The notes beneath the pieces were generated by a model, which did no database searches, was not told where the DNA came from, and worked only from the letters and a program-made list of their open reading frames with translations. The position numbers and the translations under genes are program-made. This document shows positions 1 to 37,248 of a stretch of 64,000 bases of DNA, piece after piece. The number at the start of each line of letters is the position of its first letter. The first letter of the stretch is position 1. Source of the DNA: Escherichia phage vB_EcoM_Shinka; sequence record MZ502379.1. One strand, 5' to 3'.

Positions 1-2178
1 TTAGGCCGCAAGGGCCTTCATAGTTTTAGCGATTTGGGAAACTTCATCATCACTTAAAGAGTTGCGATAACCGATGAAGTCGGAAACAATGCGGAATTTC
101 TTGGTAAACTCAGCAACCATTTTATCACTGTTTTTTGAAGCATTATTTGATAATACATCAAAAAGATTAGTTACTGTCCAGATGTCATGACCAATGGTAT
201 CTTTTCCACCATTAAAATATACACCCTGTAATGAACTAACCATATTAGCGAGTCGTGTATATTCTTCAGAAACTTCATCTACACTGAAGTACTTCATCAT
301 AAAATCTAACTCAGGATACTTGATAATTTTATCAATATATCGTTTAGCTGAACTTGAATAACCTACATACTTATCATAATCTACATCATCAAAAGCATCT
401 ACATATAAATCACGCAAAGCTTCAAAAATACATTGGCACTGACCGAGTTCTTTTACCTTTTTCTGTAAAAGCGGACGAATAACATAAAATTCATTAATGC
501 CAATAAGATTAGCCATACGAATCAAAATATTCATAGATGGATGACAAAGCGATGTAGTACCATCCATAGAGAAAATATCAGAACGATGCATATACGCTAC
601 ATAACCAGTAATTTCATCTGCTTCTGATGTGAGCGTAAATAATTCCTCTTTTTCCCAGCGCCCGTCTTTAATTTCAAACTTAAATGCTGTAGCAGCTTTA
701 GGACGAGGTGCTTTACTTTTAACTACCTTTGGAATATAACTTTTTACTAAAGCTTCAATTTCTGACAAATAATGAATGTTAACTTCATCACTTTCAAACA
801 TCGCCATAATATCAGGAAGCAAATCAATCTGCGATTCTACTTCTGGATTAATAAACAGAAGGCGTTCATTGTGATGAATATTCAAAGTGTTATTAAATTC
901 ACTATCATCTAATGCACGTGCTAATCCACGGACAATATTAACACGATTTTTAATATTATCAATAACAATATTAATTTTTGTTGTATTAATACCAAACAGA
1001 CGATAACTTGATGCAACGGCTGAAGTTTCATGACTTTGCTTAATGCGCTTCAGTCGAGGGTCAAGATTTACTTCATACACAACTCCTGCATTGCATAACT
1101 TACTATCAGGTTCAAACATGCTTTGCATCTTCTTATATGACAGATTTTTAGTCGTAAATTTGACTGAATTACTAATCATATAATCTCGAGCAGAATACCC
1201 CATCTTCATCAATTCACGATATGTATGACGGGGAGATGTGGATTCTTTAAATCGTTTTACATCTTCATTAAATGCTTTCTCACTGAGTTCTTTAACTCGT
1301 TCAATAATATTTTTACGAGTACGATCATCCAGTGAAAGAGCCTCGCGAGATGGAGCAATATCAAGTGAACCCATTGGAAACTTAATGTAATTCACTTCAT
1401 TGCGAATGCTTAGCCAGTTACGGTCTCTAATAACACCATCGATAGGATAAACAATACCGCCATAGATAGCATATAATCCACCACGATCAGGCCAGTATCT
1501 TTCTGGATTTACACCGTAATAGTCATCAAAATCCGGAAAATAATCAATTTCGCGGTCAAGACCATTAATGATAGCCAAATCTTTGAATGGTCGCATGATA
1601 TAAGAAACTTCATAAGCAAAGTTTCTAAAGTCTTTTTCTTCAACTGGAACTACGATTTCAATACCAGTTTTATCATCTGGACCCATTTCTTTTACGAATG
1701 TAGGTTTAATTTGTGGACCATCACCATCCATGTAAGCTACATAACCACGAATTTCACCTTTATGATACGAAGTAATACTAAATGTATCAGTATAACTAAA
1801 CGGAGATTTAGAACCTAAACCAAACCCGCCAATAAAGTCATTAGATTCAGCCTTAGATGAACTGAAGTATGAATTATATAACCCAGGAGAATTATCATCA
1901 CCCTGAATATCAAAATCACTCATACCCGGACCAAAATCTCGACAAACAAATCGCGGATCTAATCGTCCTGGAACTTGTATGATAAATTTTTCAGGATTTC
2001 CATTAAGTGCATGGGCATCAATCATATTAGTAATTAATTCACGGACTACTGCACGAATCTTGTTTGTATACAAATCAGATGACAGAATTTTAAATACTTT
2101 AGGAGATGCTGTGATGCTAAATGCTTTTGATTTAGAACCATTGCCAAGAATTGTTTCTTTTTCAGTGGTGATAATCAT
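1..2178 (-). CDS. rIIA: rIIA protein, complete (725 aa)
   Basis: Full-length ORF whose stop codon is at window position 1-3; length and sequence match T-even rIIA as I recall it; followed by rIIA.1 and gene 39 in canonical order. Confidence 0.92.
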
Positions 2179-2188
2179 AATTTCCTCA

Positions 2189-2392
2189 TTAATTCATATT
2201 ACGCTTAATAACTTCAGCAACTTCTAGTAATTCATCTTTAGTTGCAGTGTCGGATTGAATTTTATCTCTAATATCTTTAAAGCGGTTTTTAAATTCTTCG
2301 GCTTCTCCCATATCGAAAAAGCGTTGAATGATTCTATATTCTCGATGAACTGCTTTATCAAAAAGTTCTAAATTTACTTTATATGATTTCAT
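2189..2392 (-). CDS. rIIA.1: small hypothetical protein at the rIIA.1 position (67 aa)
   Basis: ORF directly upstream of rIIA, preceded by an early promoter; position matches T4 rIIA.1. Confidence 0.65.
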
Positions 2393-2417
2393 TTCAATAT
2401 CCTCATTTGCCCAATTA

Positions 2418-2447
2418 ATTATACCACATCCTTGTGGTAAAGTAAAC
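2418..2447 (-). promoter_or_regulatory. T4-type early promoter (GTTTAC, 18 nt, TATAAT with TGG extension)
   Basis: Minus strand reads GTTTAC-tttaccacaaggatgtgg-TATAAT; spacer contains the imperfect palindrome ccacaNNNNtgtgg; near-identical copy at 49100-49129. Confidence 0.7.
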
Positions 2448-4267
2448 TACTGGCTCATCCATTCTTTACGAAGGTCAGCATTATCTCCCATGAGCATTTC
2501 AAAAAGCTCTTTCCAGTTCTCAGGAAGTTTAACAACATCATATACTGGGTTTTGAATCATCTCACGATATTCAGATTTTTCCAAAGAGCCAAGTCCTTTA
2601 ATATAACGGATGCTATGTTTAGGTAGAGCATCTTTGGCACTCTCATATTCAGCGACTGTATAAAACCATTCTTGTTTTTTACCGACCTGAGCGATGATTA
2701 CAGGAGTTTTGACAAAGCGAATTCGTCCTTGCTCAAACAATTCTGGCCAATTACTAAAAAACCCGAGCAGAGAAGGATAAATGCTTCCTAGGCCATCATG
2801 GTCAGCATCAGTCATAATAGCGATATTATGATAATTCAAGTTTTCAGCTTTTTCACCGAGAACTAATCCAGTGATTGCGCAAATATCAAATAGTTCTTTG
2901 TTTTTAAGCATATCTGCATAAGACATACCCCAACTGTTGAGAACTTTACCGCGCAATGGATAACCACCGTGAAGTTCTTTATCACGAACATCAATAAGAT
3001 ATCCGATAGCCGAATCACCCTCAGTCAAGAAAAGAGTAGTGTCAGCATCTTTACCACAAAGATTCGCTTTGATATGTTTATGAACCTTAGCTTTAGAAGC
3101 CTTTTTAGCTGCTTTAGTTTCTGCTGCTTTTTCTGCCGCCAATTTACGAGCCAAAGCAGCTTCAATAATCGGCATTAGAATTGCTTCATTATTCAAAATA
3201 GCACGTGAAATCTTTTTAGCATCAAGTTGAATATGACTACGAATTTCGCCAAATGGAGAAGTCAAACGCTCTTTAGTTTGAGAATCAAATCGCATGTTTT
3301 TCATATCACGAACAAACATAACGATTGTCAAACATTCTTTAACGCGTGCTTTAGTCACATCAATTTTGAACTTACGTTTGATTTGTGGAATAAGGTCTTC
3401 ACAAATATCATCCATAACACAGTCAATGTGATGGCCACCATTCTTAGTATGAATGTTATTAACGTATGTTAATTGACGAAAACCATCCGGTGAACGACCA
3501 ACTGCAATAGAACAGTTTTCTTGTTCTTGAACGATAGCATGCTCATCATATTGGCGTGCATATTTCTTAAAATTGCCCTGAACCTTTTTACCATTAAAGG
3601 TAAATTGAATATCAGGATAAACAACAGCAAGTGTCTGGAGACGATCTAATGTAATGTCAAGATAAACTTGAGATAATTCATTAGTTTCAAATGACATAAA
3701 ATCTGGAATGAAAGTAACACGAGTTCCTTTCCATTTTCCAGGAATAGTTTCCCATGATTTATTTTCCATGCCATTTGAACAACGAACTACAATATTATTT
3801 TGACCATCACCAGTTTCACCGACAAACATCACAGAAAAAATGTTTGTCAAACTAGAACCAACACCATTCATACCGCCAGTGACGCGTTCTTTATCATCAC
3901 CGAAGTTACCACCTGCTTTTGGAATAGTCCATGCAGCAACAGGACCAGGAATTTCTTCACCGGTAGGTGTTTTAACCATCGCCTGCGGAATACCACGACC
4001 GTTATCTTCAACTGTTACTTGATTGTTTTTAATAGTAACATTAATTTTATTTGCGAATTTAAACTTAGTACGAATACCTTCATCTACTGAGTTATCGATA
4101 ATTTCATCAATAAGCTTAACAAGACCAGGTACATACTGAACACTTTCCCATTTACCAAACAGAAAGCGCTCATGCATTTCATTAGCAGAAGAGCCAATAT
4201 ACATGCCACTACGCTTTTTGATATGCTCAATATCGCTCAGAATTTTAATTTCATTCTTAATCATCAC
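2447..4267 (-). CDS. 39: DNA topoisomerase II large subunit, GyrB-like ATPase plus Toprim, with the gene-60 segment fused in frame (606 aa)
   Basis: N-terminal GHKL ATPase region; C-terminal 115 aa (NIAIMTDADHDGLGSIYPS...KEWMSQ) correspond to T4 gp60; one uninterrupted ORF. Confidence 0.93.
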   Translation of the reverse strand: MMIKNEIKILSDIEHIKKRSGMYIGSSANEMHERFLFGKWESVQYVPGLVKLIDEIIDNSVDEGIRTKFKFANKINVTIKNNQVTVEDNGRGIPQAMVKTPTGEEIPGPVAAWTIPKAGGNFGDDKERVTGGMNGVGSSLTNIFSVMFVGETGDGQNNIVVRCSNGMENKSWETIPGKWKGTRVTFIPDFMSFETNELSQVYLDITLDRLQTLAVVYPDIQFTFNGKKVQGNFKKYARQYDEHAIVQEQENCSIAVGRSPDGFRQLTYVNNIHTKNGGHHIDCVMDDICEDLIPQIKRKFKIDVTKARVKECLTIVMFVRDMKNMRFDSQTKERLTSPFGEIRSHIQLDAKKISRAILNNEAILMPIIEAALARKLAAEKAAETKAAKKASKAKVHKHIKANLCGKDADTTLFLTEGDSAIGYLIDVRDKELHGGYPLRGKVLNSWGMSYADMLKNKELFDICAITGLVLGEKAENLNYHNIAIMTDADHDGLGSIYPSLLGFFSNWPELFEQGRIRFVKTPVIIAQVGKKQEWFYTVAEYESAKDALPKHSIRYIKGLGSLEKSEYREMIQNPVYDVVKLPENWKELFEMLMGDNADLRKEWMSQ

Positions 4268-4603: not shown

Positions 4604-4971
4604 TTAAATTTAATGGCTTGAAGAAGACTAATAACTCTCAAGCGACTTCTTTCATCTTTAACTGTAAAAGAAAGAGGGTCACCAGACTTCATAGTAATAG
4701 TGCATTCAAAATCAAAATCTTCGGAAACTTCTTTGAAGAAGTCAAATTCTTCATCATAAATTAAAACTTCACTCCGAAGACTGTGAAGAGTTTTTCCGTC
4801 ATTTCCAGATGCTGTACTAATCATTGTAACATTATTACCTTTCATATCTTCAACGATAAATTCGCTTGTAGATATTACAGCATTAATAGAACCATTCCTA
4901 TAAATAGCAGAAAATAGATATTTCTTTTCTTCACCTTCGCGAATGCGATATTTCTTACCGATTTTAAACAT
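4600..4971 (-). CDS. hypothetical protein (123 aa)
   Basis: ORF with start/stop overlap to its neighbour (translational coupling). Confidence 0.55.
   Translation of the reverse strand: MFKIGKKYRIREGEEKKYLFSAIYRNGSINAVISTSEFIVEDMKGNNVTMISTASGNDGKTLHSLRSEVLIYDEEFDFFKEVSEDFDFECTITMKSGDPLSFTVKDERSRLRVISLLQAIKFK

Positions 4972-15869: not shown

Positions 15870-15870
<1 letters not shown>
15844..15870 (-). promoter_or_regulatory. candidate MotA-dependent middle promoter for gene 56
   Basis: Minus strand TTGCTTAC, 13 nt, TATAAT. Confidence 0.45.
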
Positions 15871-17209
<1,339 letters not shown>

Positions 17210-19924: not shown

Positions 19925-21352
19925 CTAAAATTTTAATTCATTTGCCAAAGCATCTAACTGAGCTCGAGCGGATTCGTTTCTTTGATAGCGATTCTGTTCA
20001 GCCTGAATTTGCTGTGAACCTGCTACTTCGTTCACTTCAGTTGGAGTAGAATCTTGTTCAATTTCTACCCATTTCTGATTTCCTTTTTGAACACCCATCA
20101 AAAACTTATTCCATTTATTCTTATCACCGTATCGTGATTTGATTTGCTTAATGAGTTGTTGTTCAGCAGCTGCTAGCTCCTCGGTTTCAATGACCGCAAG
20201 CATAAAATCAGCTGTTGCTGGAAGACCGGCAGATTCTGCAATATCGCTCATGTTAACATCAGAAGAATCCCAAGCTTGTTTACCAACCTGTGCTGCAGTC
20301 CAAAGAACAGTTTCGGTTTCAACAGCAAGAGCACGTAATTCCTCTGCAATGGCTTTAACAGTTGTGTAACTATTTTCTGAGTAAACTCTAATGCGGCAAG
20401 ATTTACAAATACCCAGATAGTCGACAATAATGATTGTTGGAACAAAATTCTTCTTGAGCTTTAATTCGTTTAAAAGCGATCGAAATGTATTAGCATCTGC
20501 TCCACCAGTAGGATACTGTTTAACTATTAAACGACCGAGAGTAGATTTCTCGCGCCATTTTTCCATTTTTCCTTTATACTCAGCGTAAGAAATATGCCCG
20601 TCATCAATGTCATCAAGAGAAACATCAAGCATATTAGCATCAATACGCTTAGCACAGACTTCTTCTGCCATTTCCATGGAAATGTAAAGAACATTATGTC
20701 CGAGCTGCAAATAATCTGCTGCCAATGAACACAGACCTAATGACTTACCGACGTTAACACCAGCCATTAAAACGTTCAGTGTTCCAGTTTCAGCTCCACC
20801 TTTAGTAATTTTATTTAGAATTTTGAGTCTAAATGGAACCTTACGAGCTTTATTCATATAAGATAGCCAACGTGCTTCGTAGTCATCCATCCAATCATGA
20901 CCAACGTAACTATCAAATGAAATTGATAATGCTTGGCGCATGATGTCAGGAATAGCACCTACATCTGGCATTTTCTTATTTCGTTTTTCCGGAGGAAGCT
21001 CAGCATTAGTTTGAATTTCGATTATTTTAGACGTAGCATTAAACATCGCCCTTTGCTGAACATATTTTTCTGTTTCTTTTATTAACCAACTGTGGTCTTC
21101 CGGAGAATCAGCCAGTTTTGAAATAAGTGTTTTTACACCAGAATATTCTGTTTCAGTAAATGAACTATTTTCTAATGCAACATTTAACGCATTAATAGAT
21201 GGAACGCTATGATACTCATTAACATGAGATTTAATTAATTTGAATGTATTTTTAGCTGGACCACTTTCAAAATATTCTGAATCCATATATGGCCAAACTT
21301 TTGAAAAATAAGCTTGATCAAATATGAGATGAGAAAGAATAATTTCTACCAC
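19925..21352 (-). CDS. 41: replicative DNA helicase, DnaB-like (475 aa)
   Basis: Walker A GVNVGKS; 475 aa as T4 gp41. Confidence 0.95.
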   Translation of the reverse strand: MVEIILSHLIFDQAYFSKVWPYMDSEYFESGPAKNTFKLIKSHVNEYHSVPSINALNVALENSSFTETEYSGVKTLISKLADSPEDHSWLIKETEKYVQQRAMFNATSKIIEIQTNAELPPEKRNKKMPDVGAIPDIMRQALSISFDSYVGHDWMDDYEARWLSYMNKARKVPFRLKILNKITKGGAETGTLNVLMAGVNVGKSLGLCSLAADYLQLGHNVLYISMEMAEEVCAKRIDANMLDVSLDDIDDGHISYAEYKGKMEKWREKSTLGRLIVKQYPTGGADANTFRSLLNELKLKKNFVPTIIIVDYLGICKSCRIRVYSENSYTTVKAIAEELRALAVETETVLWTAAQVGKQAWDSSDVNMSDIAESAGLPATADFMLAVIETEELAAAEQQLIKQIKSRYGDKNKWNKFLMGVQKGNQKWVEIEQDSTPTEVNEVAGSQQIQAEQNRYQRNESARAQLDALANELKF

Positions 21353-21361
21353 ACTTACTCC

Positions 21362-21724
21362 TTAAAAGAATTTAAACTTTTTCTTTGACCTTTTATTGAA
21401 TGCATCTTGCAGTTGCATTGTAATACATTTTTCTACATGAGGAGCTAACTCAGCTTTTCTTTCTTGGTCAAGAACAGCAAAGTCCATTACAACCTTTCCA
21501 TCAACCCAATCCAGTTTAGTTACATACACTATATGTGTAGAACCATCTTCTAGTTTAATGACAATCTCCTGGATAACATTTTCCATAGCGGATTTAATTA
21601 TCTTAAGAGACTCATTAAAAAGACGTTCTTTTCTTTCTTCTTCCCCCTCCGAAGAGGGGGATTCATCGATAATTTCTAGATCTAAATCTAAATCATCTTT
21701 ATTCATTAAATTCTTCCATATCAC
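21362..21724 (-). CDS. 40: head vertex assembly chaperone gp40 (120 aa)
   Basis: Position between uvsX and 41; overlaps uvsX as in T4. Confidence 0.8.
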   Translation of the reverse strand: MIWKNLMNKDDLDLDLEIIDESPSSEGEEERKERLFNESLKIIKSAMENVIQEIVIKLEDGSTHIVYVTKLDWVDGKVVMDFAVLDQERKAELAPHVEKCITMQLQDAFNKRSKKKFKFF

Positions 21725-22880
21725 TTAACTGTTCGAGGTCAGTTTCTAAATCAGCAGCTGATTTACTTTTACTTTCTGGAGATTTAAATTTTTCAACCTT
21801 TGAGTTAATCAATTCATCAACTTCAGCTTCAACAATTTCATTACTATCAATAGCACCTAACTGATAAGCACGTTTAATAGCATCTCGGAATGGTTGATGC
21901 TTAAATAAAGGACCCCAGAATGTAGTGCAGTTAGTATCTTTTGCACGCCAAGATTTTTCTTCGCGAATCATCTCGCCGGTTTCTTCATCAAGAAATTCAC
22001 GAGCATACCAACCATTTTTAGGTTTTACCACAAATCCTAATTCTAGAGCCATATCTAACAATCCAGAATAAGGATCGATACCACCGTCAAATTTAACATC
22101 AATAAAGAATTTACTTTTTTCTTTAACGGTACGAGATTTTTCTACATTTAGAACAAATTGATACCCCTGAAGATCAGAACCATCTTTAATCTGACGCTTA
22201 CCGATAATGAATACGGTATCAGCCGAATACATTACGCCTGTACCACCTGTCATCACGGTTTTACTAAACATTTCAATGGTTTCAATTGTATGGTTAACTG
22301 CAACACATGGAATATTTTTAATGCTAAAATAAGGAGTAACAATACGGAATAATGACTTCAGCGATTTAGCACGAGTCATATCTGCCACAGATTTTTCATT
22401 CAAGGCATCTTCCGTTTCTTTCTTGGAAGCCATATTACCAATTGAGTCGATGAATACAATAACCTTTTCACCACGCTCAATAGCTTCAAGCTGGTTCACC
22501 ATATCAATTTTCAGCTGTTCAACTGACTGAATTGGCGTATGAATTACTCGTTCCGGGTCAACTCCCATAGATCGCAAATAAGCTGGAGTAATACCAAATT
22601 CGCTATCATAGAATAGACAAACCGCGTCAGGATATTTGTTCAAATATGCCGCAACCATAGTCAAAGACATATTTGATTTAAAGTGTTTAGAAGGTCCTGC
22701 GAAAATAGTTAAACCAGACTGCATTCCACCATCAATCGCACCAGAAATAGCGATATTAAGCATTGGAATTTTTGTACGAATTACATCCTTTTCATTAAAG
22801 AATTTAGATGTAGTCAGTTCAGCAGTCATTTTAGAAGTGGAAGCTTTAATCAAACGGGATTTTAAATCTGCAATAGACAT
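21699..22880 (-). CDS. uvsX: UvsX recombinase, RecA-like (393 aa)
   Basis: RecA-fold core with GPSKHFKS Walker A; near-identical to T4 UvsX over most of its length. Confidence 0.95.
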   Translation of the reverse strand: MSIADLKSRLIKASTSKMTAELTTSKFFNEKDVIRTKIPMLNIAISGAIDGGMQSGLTIFAGPSKHFKSNMSLTMVAAYLNKYPDAVCLFYDSEFGITPAYLRSMGVDPERVIHTPIQSVEQLKIDMVNQLEAIERGEKVIVFIDSIGNMASKKETEDALNEKSVADMTRAKSLKSLFRIVTPYFSIKNIPCVAVNHTIETIEMFSKTVMTGGTGVMYSADTVFIIGKRQIKDGSDLQGYQFVLNVEKSRTVKEKSKFFIDVKFDGGIDPYSGLLDMALELGFVVKPKNGWYAREFLDEETGEMIREEKSWRAKDTNCTTFWGPLFKHQPFRDAIKRAYQLGAIDSNEIVEAEVDELINSKVEKFKSPESKSKSAADLETDLEQLSDMEEFNE

Positions 22881-22957: not shown

Positions 22958-23800
22958 TTAATCAACTGCTATTGGATGAATAGCATTAAACTTATGAAAT
23001 GCTTCTGATTTTTCTTTACGAGAAACACACATGCGAAGAACCTTTAATGGCTCGTCTTCTTCACCCAACGATTTTCGTTTTTCAATATTAGAAGTTTTCC
23101 AACGAGCTTGCTCTGGAAACTCTCTATTGATTTGCTCAAGCGCTCTATTATGTTTAGAATTACTGCGAATTGAACTACATCCGCCAGGAGCTTGTGCTTT
23201 TCCAGATACAACCAGATATTTGAACAAGGCCAAATGCGGATAACCTTGATTAATTAAATTGAGAAATGCATACATATCTTCACACAAATCAATTTTTCCA
23301 TACCCAATTTGTTCTGTCGTAAGTTTTCCGAGGTCATACCATGTATTCGTGAATCCATATGAATTTTCACGATAATTACCCCAAGATGAAGTAATTTTAA
23401 AAATAGGTAGACGAGCATGGCCATGATAATACCCACAATCCATGGCATCCTCAACATATTGAATCAATTCATAGAACTGTTCACGAGTCAATTGATTGAC
23501 TTTATCCACACAACGACGATCATCTCTTTTTCGCATTGAACTCATACGAATAGTAGTATCATCGTCAATCATCCAGATTCGTTGACCTGCATACATATCA
23601 GTAATTGCTTTACGAGTACCAGCAATTCCGTTTACATCATCAGGAATAGTTATAATTTTAGCTCTAGACCCATAAGCATCATAATAAGCTTTTTCTTCAT
23701 GTTCACGCACTACAATATGTGGTTCATAATCAGTCGGAAACATATTAAGGGCAGAAACTGCCCCTACACGCTGATAACTTGGAATTACGAATTGAATCAT
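22958..23800 (-). CDS. GT-A fold glycosyltransferase, probably the T2/T6-type beta-glucosyl-HMC alpha-glucosyltransferase (280 aa)
   Basis: N-terminal VIPSYQR and DDD (DxD) motifs; occupies the locus where T4 encodes beta-gt but is unrelated in sequence. Confidence 0.6.
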   Translation of the reverse strand: MIQFVIPSYQRVGAVSALNMFPTDYEPHIVVREHEEKAYYDAYGSRAKIITIPDDVNGIAGTRKAITDMYAGQRIWMIDDDTTIRMSSMRKRDDRRCVDKVNQLTREQFYELIQYVEDAMDCGYYHGHARLPIFKITSSWGNYRENSYGFTNTWYDLGKLTTEQIGYGKIDLCEDMYAFLNLINQGYPHLALFKYLVVSGKAQAPGGCSSIRSNSKHNRALEQINREFPEQARWKTSNIEKRKSLGEEDEPLKVLRMCVSRKEKSEAFHKFNAIHPIAVD

Positions 23801-23818
23801 TTAAGTGCCTTACATTTG

Positions 23819-24439
23819 TCAAAATGGTATCTTGTCATATTTGGCCCACGTCCTTTTAGTCCGCAATGCGGACATATTTTTTTCTATCAAATTATGAGGT
23901 TTTCCTTTACGATTTTTAGACATCGTTTCTTTAATTATTTTAGCTTTTTCTGCGCCAAAAATTTCTTCATAAGTTTTACCAGAATTTTCCTTTGCTCGAT
24001 TTATAATTCCATATGCCTGTTCATTTTTACCATACATTGGATTACCTTCGCCTTTCATTCTTTTAGAATGATCAGGACGCTTGATTCCACGAAAGGCATT
24101 TCCGCACTTATATCTTTCTTCTGGAGATAATTTTTTACCGTACATTCCATTTAATTTGCCTGGAAAACTTCCTCCCCATGCTTCATTCTTTAAATTATAT
24201 GAATCCGGACAATTAGCAGCATCTAAACAGGTTAAAATAATTTCTTCAACCTGTCTAAACATTGGTCCTTCATATAATATTTCTTTATTAAAGGATTTTA
24301 TTCCATATTTCTTTTTAGCATGTTGCCAAACTACACCCGAACCATCATAATTCGGGTTGTGACCATCATGACTTCCTATATACCACTTTTTAGTTTTAGG
24401 ATGTTTATACTTATAAACATGTGGCACATTTACTTCCAT
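23819..24439 (-). CDS. GIY-YIG homing endonuclease, Seg-like (206 aa)
   Basis: N-terminal VYKYKHPKTKKWYIGS GIY-YIG module; NUMOD3-like repeats (GMYGKKLSPEE, GEGNPMYGK); overlaps the gene 42 3' end. Confidence 0.7.
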   Translation of the reverse strand: MEVNVPHVYKYKHPKTKKWYIGSHDGHNPNYDGSGVVWQHAKKKYGIKSFNKEILYEGPMFRQVEEIILTCLDAANCPDSYNLKNEAWGGSFPGKLNGMYGKKLSPEERYKCGNAFRGIKRPDHSKRMKGEGNPMYGKNEQAYGIINRAKENSGKTYEEIFGAEKAKIIKETMSKNRKGKPHNLIEKNMSALRTKRTWAKYDKIPF

Positions 24440-25170
24440 TTTCCAGTATAATCCTTTTTAGCAATATGAGTTTCACCGGTGTTCCACCAATGGTCAACTA
24501 AATAAAACTGATTTTCGTACACATGAAGACTTCCAACGTTCCATATAATAGAACCCGCTTTATATTGCCGCGATGGGTCGCCTGCATTCAAATCAGATAC
24601 TAATTTATCTAGTACGTATTTTTGCCATGCATAATCATTACGATAGCCTGCCCAGCAGTCATTGCTTCTCATGTTAACAACTGCATTGACTTTCTTATCA
24701 CGAATCAGGTACTGTACTGTATTAGTACACATGAAATCTGACATGCCATCTTTATTGTAGTCAAACTGCATAGATGGACGAGTATAAATCATGATACCAC
24801 GCCGAGAATCAGGATTTTGACCAAGTTCAGCTAAACACATGTCATATTGAGCATAGTTATCTTCTGACCAGATAGCCCAACCATAATTCGAGTTAATTTC
24901 ACCTTTAGAAGATGCTACTTGTTGCCAAATCTTCGGTGTTTCACCCGGAATATCTTTAACGAACAAGCTCTTAGATTTATACCATTCAAGTTCACGCTGA
25001 ATGTATTCATCATTAAGAGCGCCAAAAATAAACGGTTCATCTGCTACAAATGATGCGCCAATAATTTCAATAGTTTTAACACCAGTTTTATCAACTACGA
25101 AATCTTTTTCTTTTAATGCAAGCCCCAAATGAAGACGGATTTCTTCAACTGTCATAGAGTCACTAATCAT
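24430..25170 (-). CDS. 42: dCMP hydroxymethylase (246 aa)
   Basis: Thymidylate-synthase-like fold; 246 aa as T4 gp42. Confidence 0.93.
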   Translation of the reverse strand: MISDSMTVEEIRLHLGLALKEKDFVVDKTGVKTIEIIGASFVADEPFIFGALNDEYIQRELEWYKSKSLFVKDIPGETPKIWQQVASSKGEINSNYGWAIWSEDNYAQYDMCLAELGQNPDSRRGIMIYTRPSMQFDYNKDGMSDFMCTNTVQYLIRDKKVNAVVNMRSNDCWAGYRNDYAWQKYVLDKLVSDLNAGDPSRQYKAGSIIWNVGSLHVYENQFYLVDHWWNTGETHIAKKDYTGKWK

Positions 25171-25323
25171 TTAAACCTCAATTGATACATTCATATTTAA
25201 CTTGTAACAGTAATAAACTCCAACCTAAAATAATAGTTGGAATCATAAGAGGAACCGTTACACTATAGTATATACTTATTATAATCATCAAGATTAAAAG
25301 CAACACTGCTATAATTTTGCTTT

Positions 25324-25575
25324 TCATTCCTTCTCTCTGATGATAATTACCTGATTTGGTTGTGCAGACTTTTTAGTTTCACCCGCAATTGACCAAATAA
25401 ATGTAATAAACCAACCAATAATTGACCAGTTAAACAGTAAAGATGCGAAAAAGATTCCTACTGTCGATTTTGACCCACGCATCAAAGCAATAAACCATGG
25501 AAGCATGTATATAATAATAGCCAACACGCCTGAAACTAAAACCATAAAAATTGAACCTGCTACTAAAGTTTCCAT
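25324..25575 (-). CDS. imm: immunity (superinfection exclusion) membrane protein Imm (83 aa)
   Basis: Two hydrophobic segments; 83 aa; position downstream of 43. Confidence 0.8.
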   Translation of the reverse strand: METLVAGSIFMVLVSGVLAIIIYMLPWFIALMRGSKSTVGIFFASLLFNWSIIGWFITFIWSIAGETKKSAQPNQVIIIREKE

Positions 25576-25582
25576 GTTTTCC

Positions 25583-25963
25583 TCACTTAGTCAAATTTTT
25601 TACGCATGAATTATAAGAATTCACTACATACTCCATCGGAGCATTTTTACCAGTACGCCATTGGTAATTATTAGCCCAATTAGCCCAAATTTCGGCGCAG
25701 TAGTTTTCAATTTTTTCTTCGTGTGTAATTACATCAGAATTACGATATGCTTGAGCAGATTCATCTGGACGAATAGCTTCGTCAAAATTCGCCTGCATTT
25801 GTTCGACTGTTTGCTTTGGAGCTTCTTTATAACACTTGACATTAGGATTATAAAATTTGCTTGAACAGTTTACAATTTTTCCTACATCAGACTGATTTAC
25901 TACCGGTCCTTGAGCTACACAACCAGTAAGACCTAATGCAATAACCAAAATAGCGATTTTCAT
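25583..25963 (-). CDS. lipoprotein-like protein (126 aa)
   Basis: Signal peptide plus lipobox LTGC. Confidence 0.55.
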   Translation of the reverse strand: MKIAILVIALGLTGCVAQGPVVNQSDVGKIVNCSSKFYNPNVKCYKEAPKQTVEQMQANFDEAIRPDESAQAYRNSDVITHEEKIENYCAEIWANWANNYQWRTGKNAPMEYVVNSYNSCVKNLTK

Positions 25964-26016
25964 AATAATTTCCTCAAATGCAAGTAGTAATTACTCCAGT
26001 AGTGCTTATGCAGGTA

Positions 26017-26211
26017 TTACCCCATTTGCACACCTAAAGATCCATTTGTATTCACATGAAGATTATCATCAATTTTAACTGATATTTTACCATTAGTGTG
26101 AATAACGGTGCTAGATTCAATCACAGGTTGAGTATCATTTTCAACACTAACAAATGGAACTGCTGCTAATGCAACTAAACAAACTGCTAAGCATCCCATA
26201 ACAATTTTCAT
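26017..26211 (-). CDS. small secreted/membrane protein (start corrected to MKIVMG)
   Basis: Signal-peptide-like N-terminus; the track start appears to be a non-ATG codon. Confidence 0.45.
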   Translation of the reverse strand: MKIVMGCLAVCLVALAAVPFVSVENDTQPVIESSTVIHTNGKISVKIDDNLHVNTNGSLGVQMG

Positions 26212-26248
26212 TTCATTCTCCAAATCCGTATCAGTAGTTGATAGTTGT

Positions 26249-26394: not shown

Positions 26395-29091
26395 TCAGCC
26401 AAACAGGAAGTCTAACGAAGCTTTTTCTTCATAGTCCATACCAGCCGATTCACACATGCCCGCAAGCGGTTTAACAAACGATTTTTGGAACAAAGTTGAG
26501 TAGTCAATCCAAGACAGTACGTCAGAACGAATTTCTTTTGGAAGTTCTGTACCCGACGGCCAAGCAATGCATTTGTCACCAAATGGATTTCCTTCACGCA
26601 ATGGAAGAACCATTACTTTATTTCCATCCAAAATTGGAGCTACACCTAAACCGCTAACAGCTCGACGATAAGTTAGCACACCGCGAATATGGAACGGGCA
26701 TTTAAATCCTGGCCAACCTTTATCATCATATTTCGCTATATCGTTCGCAGTTTTTACTTCAGCAATAACTTTATAGTCAAGTTGACGATATTCTTTCTCG
26801 AAGTTCTTGTAGTATTCTTGGACAGACTCTTCACCTTCTTGAAGAATACGACGAATACTTTCTTCGAGAGCTTCTTGGACCGCTTTAGGCGTTGAACTCT
26901 GCTGAGTTTCCATACCCATGATTTTTAGATGCGGTTCAGCAAATCGTTTATCTTCCATATCATAAACGTTCAGAGCATAACGCTTTTTCGCTTTCCAAAA
27001 TCCACCAATACCCTTTGAACCAAGTGGAGGGCAAGAAATAGCTTCACGGTCCATATGCATCAGATGCTCGCGGTTATTCATATAATCACATAACTCACGA
27101 TATGCAACATCAATCATAGGTTCCATCTTTTTCTTACCGAACTGATTCATAAATTCAACCAAATCGTTCTGCTCTTTGAATCGGTCAAGACCAACTTTTT
27201 CAATAACTTTATCTACACAAACATATACCGAATCAGTATCACCTGCTGCGATGAAATCTTCGCCATTAGTTCCACATACTTTATTCAGATACTCATTAAT
27301 TTTACGAGCAATCCACTGAATACCAACTTGGCCGAAAATTGTGATAGCAGTAGCATTTCGCAAATCATAGTAACGGAAATGAATATTACCAAGAGCACCA
27401 TAAAGACTGTTAATAAGAATTTTACGGTTCAGCTGATTTGTATTAGCAAGTGTAGCAGCTTTTTCACATTCCTCAATCAGACTATTGAGAACAGATTCAG
27501 TATAATTCGACAGTTCATTTAAGAAATCATCACTGAACTTAACATATCGTTCAACTTCTGGTTTAGTTGAACAAGACCCTGCGCCTTTCATAATAATCTT
27601 TTTAATAGCTTCGGCATTCATTTCTTCAGCGAACATTTTCTTTTTCCAGTCTTTACGCTGGAAAAATACTTTAGCGATTTCCTTTGGAATGATACCTTCT
27701 TGATGCTTATCATACATCCATCCATTCGGAGAACAAGAATATTCATCACTCGGTTTAGGAGCTGTTCCTGCAATATATTCATGAATTGGATGAACTTTAA
27801 ACTGACCACGAATAGTCTCAGGACTAATGTTAACCTGACGAATAATGCTCGGATACAGAGACGTCAAGTCAAAACTCATAATATATCGACGAGCAATTGG
27901 TTTAGGTTCAAATACGAATGCACCCGGAAAACTCTGTTTAACGTGCGAACCCTGTTGAGGAATAACCTTATGTTCACCTTTCAATGAGTTAAAAATAATA
28001 GCATCCCAAGTTTTAATAGGACTCATTACACCAGAAAAAGGCATTTTAGCATAATAAGACATACTTAAAACTAGATCGATAAACCCGCGAATTTTATCAA
28101 TTGCTTGAACTGATTCTACGTCAATGATGTTATAACTAATGTATCGTTGATGATTAGTCTCACGAAGTTTATTAATAGGACCATCATACGGTAATTTACC
28201 TTTTTTGGTTTCATGTTGAGCAACTGATTCCAAAGAGAATGACGGCAAATTAGTAAAAGCGAATTTCTTGTACAAATCTAAATAATCAAGAATAGATACG
28301 CCATCAATAGAATAAATTTCTTTGCTACCGTACATATTTTGAATTAGTTTAGATTTTACTCGACCGATTGGAGAGAAGCGTTTCATACTACGTTCACCGA
28401 GAACCATTTTAACACGATTCATGATATACGGAACGTCAAATCCCTCAATATTCCAACCAGTAAAAATAGCAGGTCGTTTCTGTTCCCAGAGATTGATATA
28501 TTCCATGAGCATATCACGCTCATTATCGAATGGCATATAAATTACTCGGTCAAGAATTTCTTGAGGAACTTCATCACCACCTTCACAGTCAAGCTTAGCA
28601 GCTAACTTTGCATCCCATTTTGATACTGAACCGTACATTGAATTCAAAAGGTCGAAAACATAAAAACGATCATCAATTGAATCATAATGAGTGATAGCAT
28701 CAATTTCATATTCAGCTTTCATTGGATCAGGAAATTTATCACCAGTAACCTCAATGTCACAGTTAGCTACACGAACAAATTTTCGGTCATAAACAATTTC
28801 TGAACCATACGTATCACTGATATAAGCGAGTTTAAAATCGTTCATACCAAGAGCTTCGAGACCGATGTCTTCCATTCGCTTCATCCAATCTCGAGCATCT
28901 TTCATTGATGGAAATTTTTGAGGAGCGCAATTTTTACCATAGATGTCTTTGTACTTTGACTCTTCCTTACAATGTCTAAACATAGTTGGAAGATATTCTA
29001 CTTCGCGAGTACGTTCCTTTCCATTTTCATCAATATAACGTTCAACAATGTTATTTCCGACTGTTTCGATAGAGATATAAAATTCTTTCAT
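26395..29091 (-). CDS. 43: DNA polymerase, family B (898 aa)
   Basis: 898 aa; exonuclease and polymerase motifs (DTDS, YGDTDS-like); matches T4 gp43. Confidence 0.97.
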   Translation of the reverse strand: MKEFYISIETVGNNIVERYIDENGKERTREVEYLPTMFRHCKEESKYKDIYGKNCAPQKFPSMKDARDWMKRMEDIGLEALGMNDFKLAYISDTYGSEIVYDRKFVRVANCDIEVTGDKFPDPMKAEYEIDAITHYDSIDDRFYVFDLLNSMYGSVSKWDAKLAAKLDCEGGDEVPQEILDRVIYMPFDNERDMLMEYINLWEQKRPAIFTGWNIEGFDVPYIMNRVKMVLGERSMKRFSPIGRVKSKLIQNMYGSKEIYSIDGVSILDYLDLYKKFAFTNLPSFSLESVAQHETKKGKLPYDGPINKLRETNHQRYISYNIIDVESVQAIDKIRGFIDLVLSMSYYAKMPFSGVMSPIKTWDAIIFNSLKGEHKVIPQQGSHVKQSFPGAFVFEPKPIARRYIMSFDLTSLYPSIIRQVNISPETIRGQFKVHPIHEYIAGTAPKPSDEYSCSPNGWMYDKHQEGIIPKEIAKVFFQRKDWKKKMFAEEMNAEAIKKIIMKGAGSCSTKPEVERYVKFSDDFLNELSNYTESVLNSLIEECEKAATLANTNQLNRKILINSLYGALGNIHFRYYDLRNATAITIFGQVGIQWIARKINEYLNKVCGTNGEDFIAAGDTDSVYVCVDKVIEKVGLDRFKEQNDLVEFMNQFGKKKMEPMIDVAYRELCDYMNNREHLMHMDREAISCPPLGSKGIGGFWKAKKRYALNVYDMEDKRFAEPHLKIMGMETQQSSTPKAVQEALEESIRRILQEGEESVQEYYKNFEKEYRQLDYKVIAEVKTANDIAKYDDKGWPGFKCPFHIRGVLTYRRAVSGLGVAPILDGNKVMVLPLREGNPFGDKCIAWPSGTELPKEIRSDVLSWIDYSTLFQKSFVKPLAGMCESAGMDYEEKASLDFLFG

Positions 29092-36029: not shown

Positions 36030-36047
36030 AAAGGGCCGAAGCCCTTT
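36030..36047 (-). terminator. hairpin with UUCG tetraloop at the alpha-gt 3' end
   Basis: aaagggc-cgaa-gcccttt. Confidence 0.55.
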
Positions 36048-37248
36048 ATTTTGTAATAATGTCAAACTGTTCTTTAAAGCAGAAGCTTGAATCTTGATGC
36101 TGATACAAAAATTCATAAGCTTTTTCGCGTTCGCGGTCATAAAGAGCTCGGTCAGATGACAGTTCTTTAATACGTTCGAATGTTGATTCCATGTCATTTT
36201 CATCAAACCAAATGATACCGCTATCATGCGAGGTCAAAGGAGTACTATCAACACGGAATTTTAAATTTTCGCCAGTAGATTTCCAAAATACCGGAATTGT
36301 TCCACATGCACCAAGCTCGAGATGAGTATATTCTAAAGAGCGCTGTAGATATTTTTTATCCAACTTACTCAGCTGATAACCAAAACCGGATTTACTCATG
36401 CGTTCAAGCATTTCGCTATTTACATAACGGTCAAGAATTTGCGTTGGCAAATTAGGAGCAATTTTAATTTGGTCTACTTGATGAAGACGATAATACTCGT
36501 ATGGAATTCCTTTTTCTTTAATAGGAATGAACGCTGGAGAACGTTCCAGACCTTCCATAATAGTACTTAGTCCTGCAGGTTTAAGATGCTTTTCATGAAA
36601 ATCAAACATCTGATAAAAACCTTTCCATGTAGTCGTACGACCAATCCAACGGTTGATATTCATGTTAATTTCAGAAACATCTTTCCAGTAGGTTGACCGA
36701 ACCTTCGCAATATCCATAGGAGGCTGAAAGTTATATACAGTCGGCGCTTCTTCAATATCATCAAACAGAGAAACTGTTTCTGGATACCATTCTTTCATCA
36801 GAACTTTATTAAAATCACCATTATCAGAATGGCTAAAAATAACATCAGCTCGACGAACAGTTTCTTCTAATCCCAAATTTCGACGCAAAGAAAGAGAAGA
36901 ATGGTCATGTTGATAAACTACAACACGAACAGAAGGTTTAATGTTATCAATAATTTTTTTATAGTTATTAATAGTGTCTTCTTCAACCGAAGTAGCAGGA
37001 ACTGAATTAATAATTAGAATATCACAATCATTTACCAGCTTAAGTGTTTTATCATATTCTTTTGCCAATAAAACCGGAATTGAAAATGATTTATAATCAT
37101 GCGCGCAATTACGAGTAAATGATTTATCTTTAGCATAAACCAAAGTTACTTCATGACCATTTTTAATAAACCAATCACGTTGCTCGAGTGAGAATTTTGT
37201 TACACCACAACCTTCAAGACCTCGAGCCATAAAAATACATACTTTCAT
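36046..37248 (-). CDS. agt: DNA alpha-glucosyltransferase (400 aa)
   Basis: 400 aa; closely matches T4 alpha-gt as I recall it. Confidence 0.92.
   Translation of the reverse strand: MKVCIFMARGLEGCGVTKFSLEQRDWFIKNGHEVTLVYAKDKSFTRNCAHDYKSFSIPVLLAKEYDKTLKLVNDCDILIINSVPATSVEEDTINNYKKIIDNIKPSVRVVVYQHDHSSLSLRRNLGLEETVRRADVIFSHSDNGDFNKVLMKEWYPETVSLFDDIEEAPTVYNFQPPMDIAKVRSTYWKDVSEINMNINRWIGRTTTWKGFYQMFDFHEKHLKPAGLSTIMEGLERSPAFIPIKEKGIPYEYYRLHQVDQIKIAPNLPTQILDRYVNSEMLERMSKSGFGYQLSKLDKKYLQRSLEYTHLELGACGTIPVFWKSTGENLKFRVDSTPLTSHDSGIIWFDENDMESTFERIKELSSDRALYDREREKAYEFLYQHQDSSFCFKEQFDIITK

Follow-up and report, generated by a model that had tools for sequence, protein, structure and literature searches.

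A gene very probably orthologous to the T2/T6 beta-glucosyl-HMC-alpha-glucosyltransferase lies between uvsX and gene 42 of Escherichia phage vB_EcoM_Shinka

In phage T4, the genes of one interval run uvsX, segA, b-gt, 42, and the beta-glucosyltransferase encoded by b-gt (beta-gt) belongs to CAZy family GT63. In Escherichia phage vB_EcoM_Shinka (sequence record MZ502379.1), of which we analyzed a stretch of 64,000 nucleotides (hereafter the window), the same interval carries an open reading frame (ORF) that a first-pass annotation assigned to another kind of glycosyltransferase. Which transferase occupies this locus, and what would it make of the phage DNA? Altogether, our analysis argues strongly that the ORF is an orthologue of the T2/T6 beta-glucosyl-HMC-alpha-glucosyltransferase (ggt, also ba-gt or g-gt; TAGT), the enzyme that makes gentiobiosyl-hmC, and we regard this reading as very probable. 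The gene was reportedly cloned from T2 and T6 by Winkler and Rueger in 1993. Nothing in this biology is new: enzyme, fold class, locus and consequences are already on record, and work published by 2026 covers the fold class, the family, the synteny with beta-gt and the prevalence (PMC13390438, PMC13216743).

The open reading frame, its family and its fold

The ORF begins with ATG and is intact. In agreement with the first-pass annotation, a 280-residue reading frame with the motifs VIPSYQR and DDD lies at the beta-gt locus, between uvsX and gene 42 (Table 1), in a minus-strand order of gp41, gp40, uvsX, ggt, a GIY-YIG endonuclease-like ORF, gene 42, imm-region ORFs and gp43. Judged by its conservation, it is a real and intact gene rather than a chance ORF, because 474 phage records hold it at no less than 90% nucleotide identity over its full length (90–99%), many of them under the name beta-glucosyl-HMC-alpha-glucosyltransferase. 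A scan for promoters and terminators around the locus stayed at background level. Elsewhere in the region, a strongly hydrophobic ORF of 49 residues (25178..25327, minus strand) stands between gene 42 and imm; phages Solly, CP and Geo have an ORF of equal length in the same place, labeled "Phage protein", and the matching gap of ~150 bp carries no annotation in the T4, T2 and T6 records.

Table 1. Positions in the window of ggt, its motifs, its neighbors and other genes discussed in the text.
Feature	Position	Strand	Basis or remark
Dam-type N6-adenine methyltransferase	15870..16649	-	Pfam MethyltransfD12 6.5e-51
186-aa ORF abutting Dam	16649..17209	-	resembles DpnII and BanI restriction endonucleases only weakly and below threshold, E ~0.005-0.009
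gp41 helicase	19925..21352	-	gp41, gp40 and uvsX lie on the stop-codon side of ggt
uvsX	21699..22880	-	Pfam T4_UVSX_C 4.7e-39
ggt / ba-gt, beta-glucosyl-HMC-alpha-glucosyltransferase (very probable), 280 aa, Pfam TAGT, predicted GT-A fold	22958..23800	-	ORF, Pfam, PHROG, orthology, fold matches
DDD, ggt residues 79-81, DxD-type motif	23558..23566	-	translation
VIPSYQR, ggt residues 5-11, N-terminal, includes R11	23768..23788	-	translation
GIY-YIG (Seg-like) homing-endonuclease ORF, 206 aa	23819..24439	-	PHROG 314 1.1e-28; 37% to T4 SegA over N-terminal part
gene 42, dCMP hydroxymethylase, source of hmC	24430..25170	-	94% identical to T4 gp42; Pfam Thymidylat_synt
small imm-region ORFs	25178..26223	-	
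gp43 DNA polymerase	26395..29091	-	endonuclease ORF, gene 42, imm ORFs and gp43 lie on the start side of ggt
a-gt, DNA alpha-glucosyltransferase, makes alpha-glucosyl-hmC acceptor	36046..37248	-	tblastn 91% to T4 a-gt over 400 aa; Pfam PF11440 AGT 1.1e-236

The protein matches PHROG 842, "beta-glucosyl-HMC-alpha-glucosyltransferase", over residues 1–275 (9.5e-89) and Pfam PF20691, TAGT (TET-associated glycosyltransferase), over residues 3–207 with 39.8 bits (6.2e-10; gathering cut-off, 27.5 bits), an alignment that spans positions 2–205 of the 205 in the profile; neither ggt nor a-gt is covered by an NCBIfam model. It is identical to T2 ggt, in two T2 records, at 277 of 280 residues (the three substitutions being R11H, N19D and P251S) and to the annotated T6 ggt at 258 of 261 (Y40N, D55G and R106H), while identity amounts to 279/280 for SOLLY_044 of phage Solly, 277/280 for PYps14T and 272/280 for Geo. 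The T2/T6 gene likewise has 280 codons, the same motifs and the same partners, a-gt and 42; the homologous gene lies between uvsX and gene 42 in two T2 and two T6 records, and the flanks of the locus are 98% identical to T2/T6. The earlier proposal of a T2/T6-type enzyme is thus borne out by protein identity and by locus. Over 24 kb around the locus, the sequence shares 98.5% identity with Yersinia phage PYps14T and ~97–98% with many other Tequatrovirus genomes; the Shinka DNA is therefore that of an ordinary T-even-type phage.

The relation to T4 beta-gt is one of position and not of descent. Both genes fill the slot between uvsX and gene 42, and both products transfer glucose from UDP-glucose in beta linkage to modified phage DNA. 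However, BLASTP of ggt against T4 beta-gt gave no similarity (best E = 2.2), the published fold classes are GT-B for beta-gt and GT-A for ggt (PMC13216743), and the acceptors differ, being naked hmC for beta-gt and alpha-glucosyl-hmC for ggt. Together with fold matches to GT-A and not to GT-B, the BLASTP result upholds the initial view that the two proteins are unrelated. Public annotations mix up these two unrelated transferases: the records of RB55 and RB59 call a T4-type b-gt "beta-glucosyl-HMC-alpha-glucosyl-transferase", and several records call the TAGT gene "beta-glucosyltransferase", "b-gt" or "hypothetical protein".

For the fold we used a second AlphaFold2 model, built from an alignment of ten sequences that included nine database homologues at 98% to 32% identity; a single-sequence model had been unusable (pLDDT 40) and was dropped. 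The alignment-based model reached a pLDDT of 72.5 and a pTM of 0.76, with the N-terminal nucleotide-binding half mostly above 80 and low confidence in segments 131–149, 200–211 and 238–248, so that its details at the acceptor site are unreliable. Foldseek returned 120 matches in the PDB at E <= 1e-3, headed by the GT-A enzymes WrtF fucosyltransferase, AvpGT, TarS, TarP, the chondroitin polymerase K4CP, SpsA and RmlT, and no GT-B phage glucosyltransferase was among the PDB matches listed. Lack of a glycosyltransferase fold would have refuted the first-pass annotation; the nearest structures to the model are GT-A enzymes. The model thus predicts a GT-A, GT2-like fold with a single Rossmann-like nucleotide-binding domain. 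A PDB search with the ggt sequence found no solved structure for the family, the best match being an unrelated protein (E = 1.6). Sequence identity to cellular GT-A enzymes of the GT2 family (SpsA, TarS/TarP, K4CP, BcsA, WrtF) is only 6–15%, and these act on polysaccharides, teichoic acids or lipids and not on DNA-linked glucose.

VIPSYQR sits on and just past the first beta-strand of the nucleotide-binding half in the model (residues 2–6), and I6, P7, S8, Y9 and R11 are invariant in ten homologues down to 32% identity; D79, D80 and D81, invariant in the same alignment, directly follow strand 74–79, so that in the model a core beta-strand ends in an acidic motif of the DxD type. No residue that the homologues, down to 32% identity, have without exception is altered in the Shinka protein. 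By analogy to GT-A enzymes in general, residues 79–81 probably take part in binding metal and nucleotide sugar and in catalysis.

The predicted reaction and its extent

The pathway partners of the enzyme are present in the window in the form of a-gt and gene 42. A tblastn search of the 64-kb window for T4-type b-gt gave no match at E <= 1e-3, and no relative carries beta-gt outside the uvsX–42 locus; in a published survey, alpha-GT and beta-GT occur together in only 6 of 753 genomes (PMC13216743). In our model, gp42 would produce hydroxymethyl-dCMP, hmC would enter phage DNA at replication, the alpha-glucosyltransferase would place an alpha-linked glucose on part of the hmC, and ggt would take UDP-glucose and add a glucose beta-1,6 to this first glucose, giving gentiobiosyl-hmC. 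Shinka DNA would be expected to contain gentiobiosyl-hmC along with naked hmC and a share of alpha-glucosyl-hmC, and to be free of beta-glucosyl-hmC. Together, fold and DxD motif suggest an inverting, metal-dependent, GT2-like mechanism; a beta linkage formed from UDP-alpha-glucose amounts to an inversion of configuration and therefore fits the GT2-like inverting class.

The chemistry comes from published work on near-identical enzymes. UDP-glucose is stated as the donor for the T-even transferases (PMC6024577), and T2 and T6, which have no b-gt, carry an enzyme that adds a second glucose beta-1,6 to alpha-glucosyl-hmC to form gentiobiosyl-hmC (PMC6024577; bioRxiv 10.64898/2026.02.25.707755; PMC13216743). 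When ba-gt is deleted from T6, only alpha-glucosyl-hmC remains, at ~75% (PMC11078745; bioRxiv 10.64898/2026.02.25.707755). HPLC/MS of virion DNA of Solly, which like Shinka, as far as the 64-kb window goes, is a Tequatrovirus with a-gt and TAGT and no beta-gt, found ~1/3 hmdC, ~2/3 alpha-gentiobiosyl-hmdC and no beta-glucosyl form, and the authors place TAGT at a position syntenic with T4 beta-GT (PMC13390438). The Solly HPLC/MS data and the T6 deletion phenotypes lend indirect support to beta-1,6 transfer to alpha-glucosyl-hmC by the Shinka enzyme.

What is uncertain, and not readable from sequence, is the gentiobiosyl fraction in Shinka rather than the identity of the enzyme or the kind of modification. 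Gentiobiosyl-hmC makes up ~5% of hmC in T2 and ~72% in T6, with ~25% of hmC left naked (PMC6024577; bioRxiv 10.64898/2026.02.25.707755; PMC13216743), and across near-identical enzymes the fraction ranges from ~5% in T2 over ~40% in Geo, EL and BGP to ~67–72% in Solly and T6 (PMC6024577, PMC13390438). The Durham study distinguishes two Tequatrovirus groups, one with ~2/3 gentiobiosyl (Solly, CP and others) and one in which hmC, glucosyl and gentiobiosyl forms stand at ~1:2:2 (Geo, EL, BGP), and it finds Dam-like and restriction-enzyme-like genes exclusively in the latter, partially gentiobiosylated group (PMC13390438). Shinka has a Solly-type ggt, yet its Dam gene and adjoining 186-aa ORF are 100% identical to those of Geo and are not found in Solly; given this mixture of a Solly-type ggt with a Geo-type cassette, its modification level is uncertain. 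In addition, ggt is not directly beside gene 42 as it is in T2 and T6, since a 631-bp insertion (23803..24433) with the endonuclease-like gene intervenes and removes the overlap between start and stop of gene 42 and ggt seen in T2, T6, Solly, CP and Geo, a loss that might have changed ggt expression. The insertion is absent both from Solly and CP of the high group and from Geo of the partial group.

A residue of the N-terminal motif may bear on the low level in T2. Both T2 records (MH751506 and LC348380) have His at codon 11 of ggt (window 23768..23770), and Arg stands at this position, within the IPSY.R motif, in Shinka, Solly, CP, Geo, T6 and all nine database homologues down to 32% identity. 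From these alignments, R11H in T2 is a candidate explanation for ~5% gentiobiosyl-hmC there against ~72% in T6. A very low, T2-like level in Shinka seems the least likely outcome because Shinka keeps the invariant R11, whereas the T2 records have H11.

The alternatives to our reading concern the strength of the enzyme, its acceptor and its donor. Shinka might possess the same enzyme in an effectively weak form, as in T2, with a few percent of hmC gentiobiosylated and DNA that behaves as if alpha-glucosylated only. The T2 protein, with 277 of 280 residues in common, goes along with ~5% gentiobiosyl-hmC; the insertion parts ggt from gene 42, so that the translational coupling of T2, T6 and Solly is lost; and the ggt lesions in two T6 records described below suggest that the gene is dispensable in the laboratory. 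However, R11 is shared with Solly and T6, the sole difference from the Solly enzyme (~2/3 gentiobiosyl) is N19 in place of D19 at a variable position, and an AAGG Shine-Dalgarno-like element stands 7 nt upstream of the ggt ATG, so that we consider a weak enzyme very unlikely.

It is far less credible still that ggt glucosylates naked hmC directly and so takes over the function of T4 beta-gt, yielding beta-glucosyl-hmC. Its place at the beta-gt locus would suit such a role, and because solitary TAGT homologues exist in phages with neither alpha-gt nor beta-gt (PMC13216743), some members of the family must use another acceptor. Yet no beta-glucosyl-hmdC was detected in the Durham Tequatrovirus phages that have a TAGT enzyme, Solly included, in which about one-third of hmC stays naked (PMC13390438), as does ~25% in T2/T6 (bioRxiv 10.64898/2026.02.25.707755), and T6 without ba-gt retains its ~75% alpha-glucosyl-hmC. 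Equally little weight falls on transfer of another sugar, for example arabinose as in phages of the Mosigvirus/RB69 type, or on an acceptor other than DNA. The GT-A matches span many donors and acceptors, and the quality of the model is too low for donor specificity, but the protein is ~99% identical to enzymes of phages whose DNA has measured gentiobiosyl-hmC, arabinosylating phages use 5-hydroxy-dC with different transferases and an arabinose-precursor gene cluster (PMC13390438), and gp42 of Shinka is 94% identical to the T4 hydroxymethylase. The T2/T6-type reaction stays much the preferred reading.

Two T6 records deserve separate mention. In MH550421, codon 10 of ggt (4950..4952 region of the retrieved stretch) is TAG and not CAG, so that the annotation begins the ORF at M20, without the VIPSYQR strand; in AP018814 (ggt at 2135..2974 of the retrieved stretch), an in-frame loss of one Asp turns DDD into DD and leaves 279 residues. 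Because T6 is the textbook high-gentiobiosyl phage and yet both records carry ggt lesions, these T6 stocks may be modified differently than is supposed. The truncated T6 form may also be the RefSeq protein that serves as family reference.

The uvsX–42 interval as a swap site and the consequences for host defense

Homology to T4 breaks off at 22868, barely within the beginning of uvsX, and picks up again at 24438, where gene 42 ends, so that 1.57 kb in Shinka replaces the 1.93 kb of segA and b-gt in T4; in comparison with T2 and T6, the endonuclease-gene insertion is the sole extra DNA. By these alignments the uvsX–42 interval is a swap site that exists in at least three states, namely segA with b-gt in T4, ggt alone in T2, T6, Solly, CP and Geo, and ggt with a seg-like gene in Shinka, PYps14T and ~77 other records at no less than 95% identity. 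The first-pass annotation saw ggt as standing in place of T4 beta-gt. The same slot is indeed occupied; taking T4 as the norm is less apt, as ggt is the majority state, with 474 records against 29 for T4-type beta-gt.

The endonuclease gene between gene 42 and ggt is a neighbor of the modification pathway and no part of it. It is present in 86 phage records, one of which names it SegD, and T2, T6, Solly, CP and Geo lack it. In Shinka, its A-run at 23877..23883 has one A more than in PYps14T and in the 620-nt copies of most other records listed, which shifts the frame of the last ~19 codons and removes a C-terminal zinc-finger-like motif (CPHCG...HFDKC); the ORF stops 18 nt short of the ggt start, which it would otherwise overlap. 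The extra A may reflect either genuine inactivation of the gene or a sequencing error in the homopolymer. It is tempting to speculate, although we think it unlikely, that the ggt cassette is a hitch-hiker of this GIY-YIG endonuclease, or that Shinka is a natural recombinant of a Solly-type ggt with a Geo-type cassette of Dam and nuclease-like genes. Where two phages infect one cell, the enzyme would cleave genomes free of the endonuclease close to the 42/uvsX interval, and ggt would be co-converted during repair. The Shinka copy of the endonuclease gene is, however, frameshifted at its C-terminus. If hitch-hiking were true, it would help to explain why the TAGT cassette is far commoner than T4-type segA and beta-gt at this hot-spot, and if Shinka were a recombinant, measurements on its DNA could reveal the locus that governs how much gentiobiosyl hmC there is relative to monoglucosyl hmC.

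The second glucose matters for enzymes that attack modified DNA. The Brig1 glycosylase excises alpha-glucosyl-hmC and does not degrade T6 DNA in vitro, and T6 without ba-gt is more sensitive to it (PMC11078745). Similarly, the glucosyl hydrolase BapA releases no glucose from gentiobiosyl-hmC, and deletion of ba-gt makes T6 DNA a substrate (bioRxiv 10.64898/2026.02.25.707755). Enzymes of the GmrSD family, for example BrxU, still cut gentiobiosyl DNA (PMC13216743, PMC13390438). The further suggestion of the first-pass annotation, that modification pattern and nuclease sensitivity would differ from T4, is therefore already in print for T6 and near-identical phages (PMC13390438, PMC11078745, bioRxiv 10.64898/2026.02.25.707755). 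Given the behavior of gentiobiosyl-hmC DNA reported for T6 and for the Durham phages, a ggt-bearing phage should, by analogy, resemble T6 and not T4 in its sensitivity to host defenses.

The finding is correct but ordinary, as ggt is the usual gene at the uvsX–42 position in T4-like coliphages. Its value lies mainly in annotation and prediction: the correct name is of some practical use, as many records still say "hypothetical protein" or "beta-glucosyltransferase", and the expected T6-like defense profile would be useful in picking therapeutic or typing phages.
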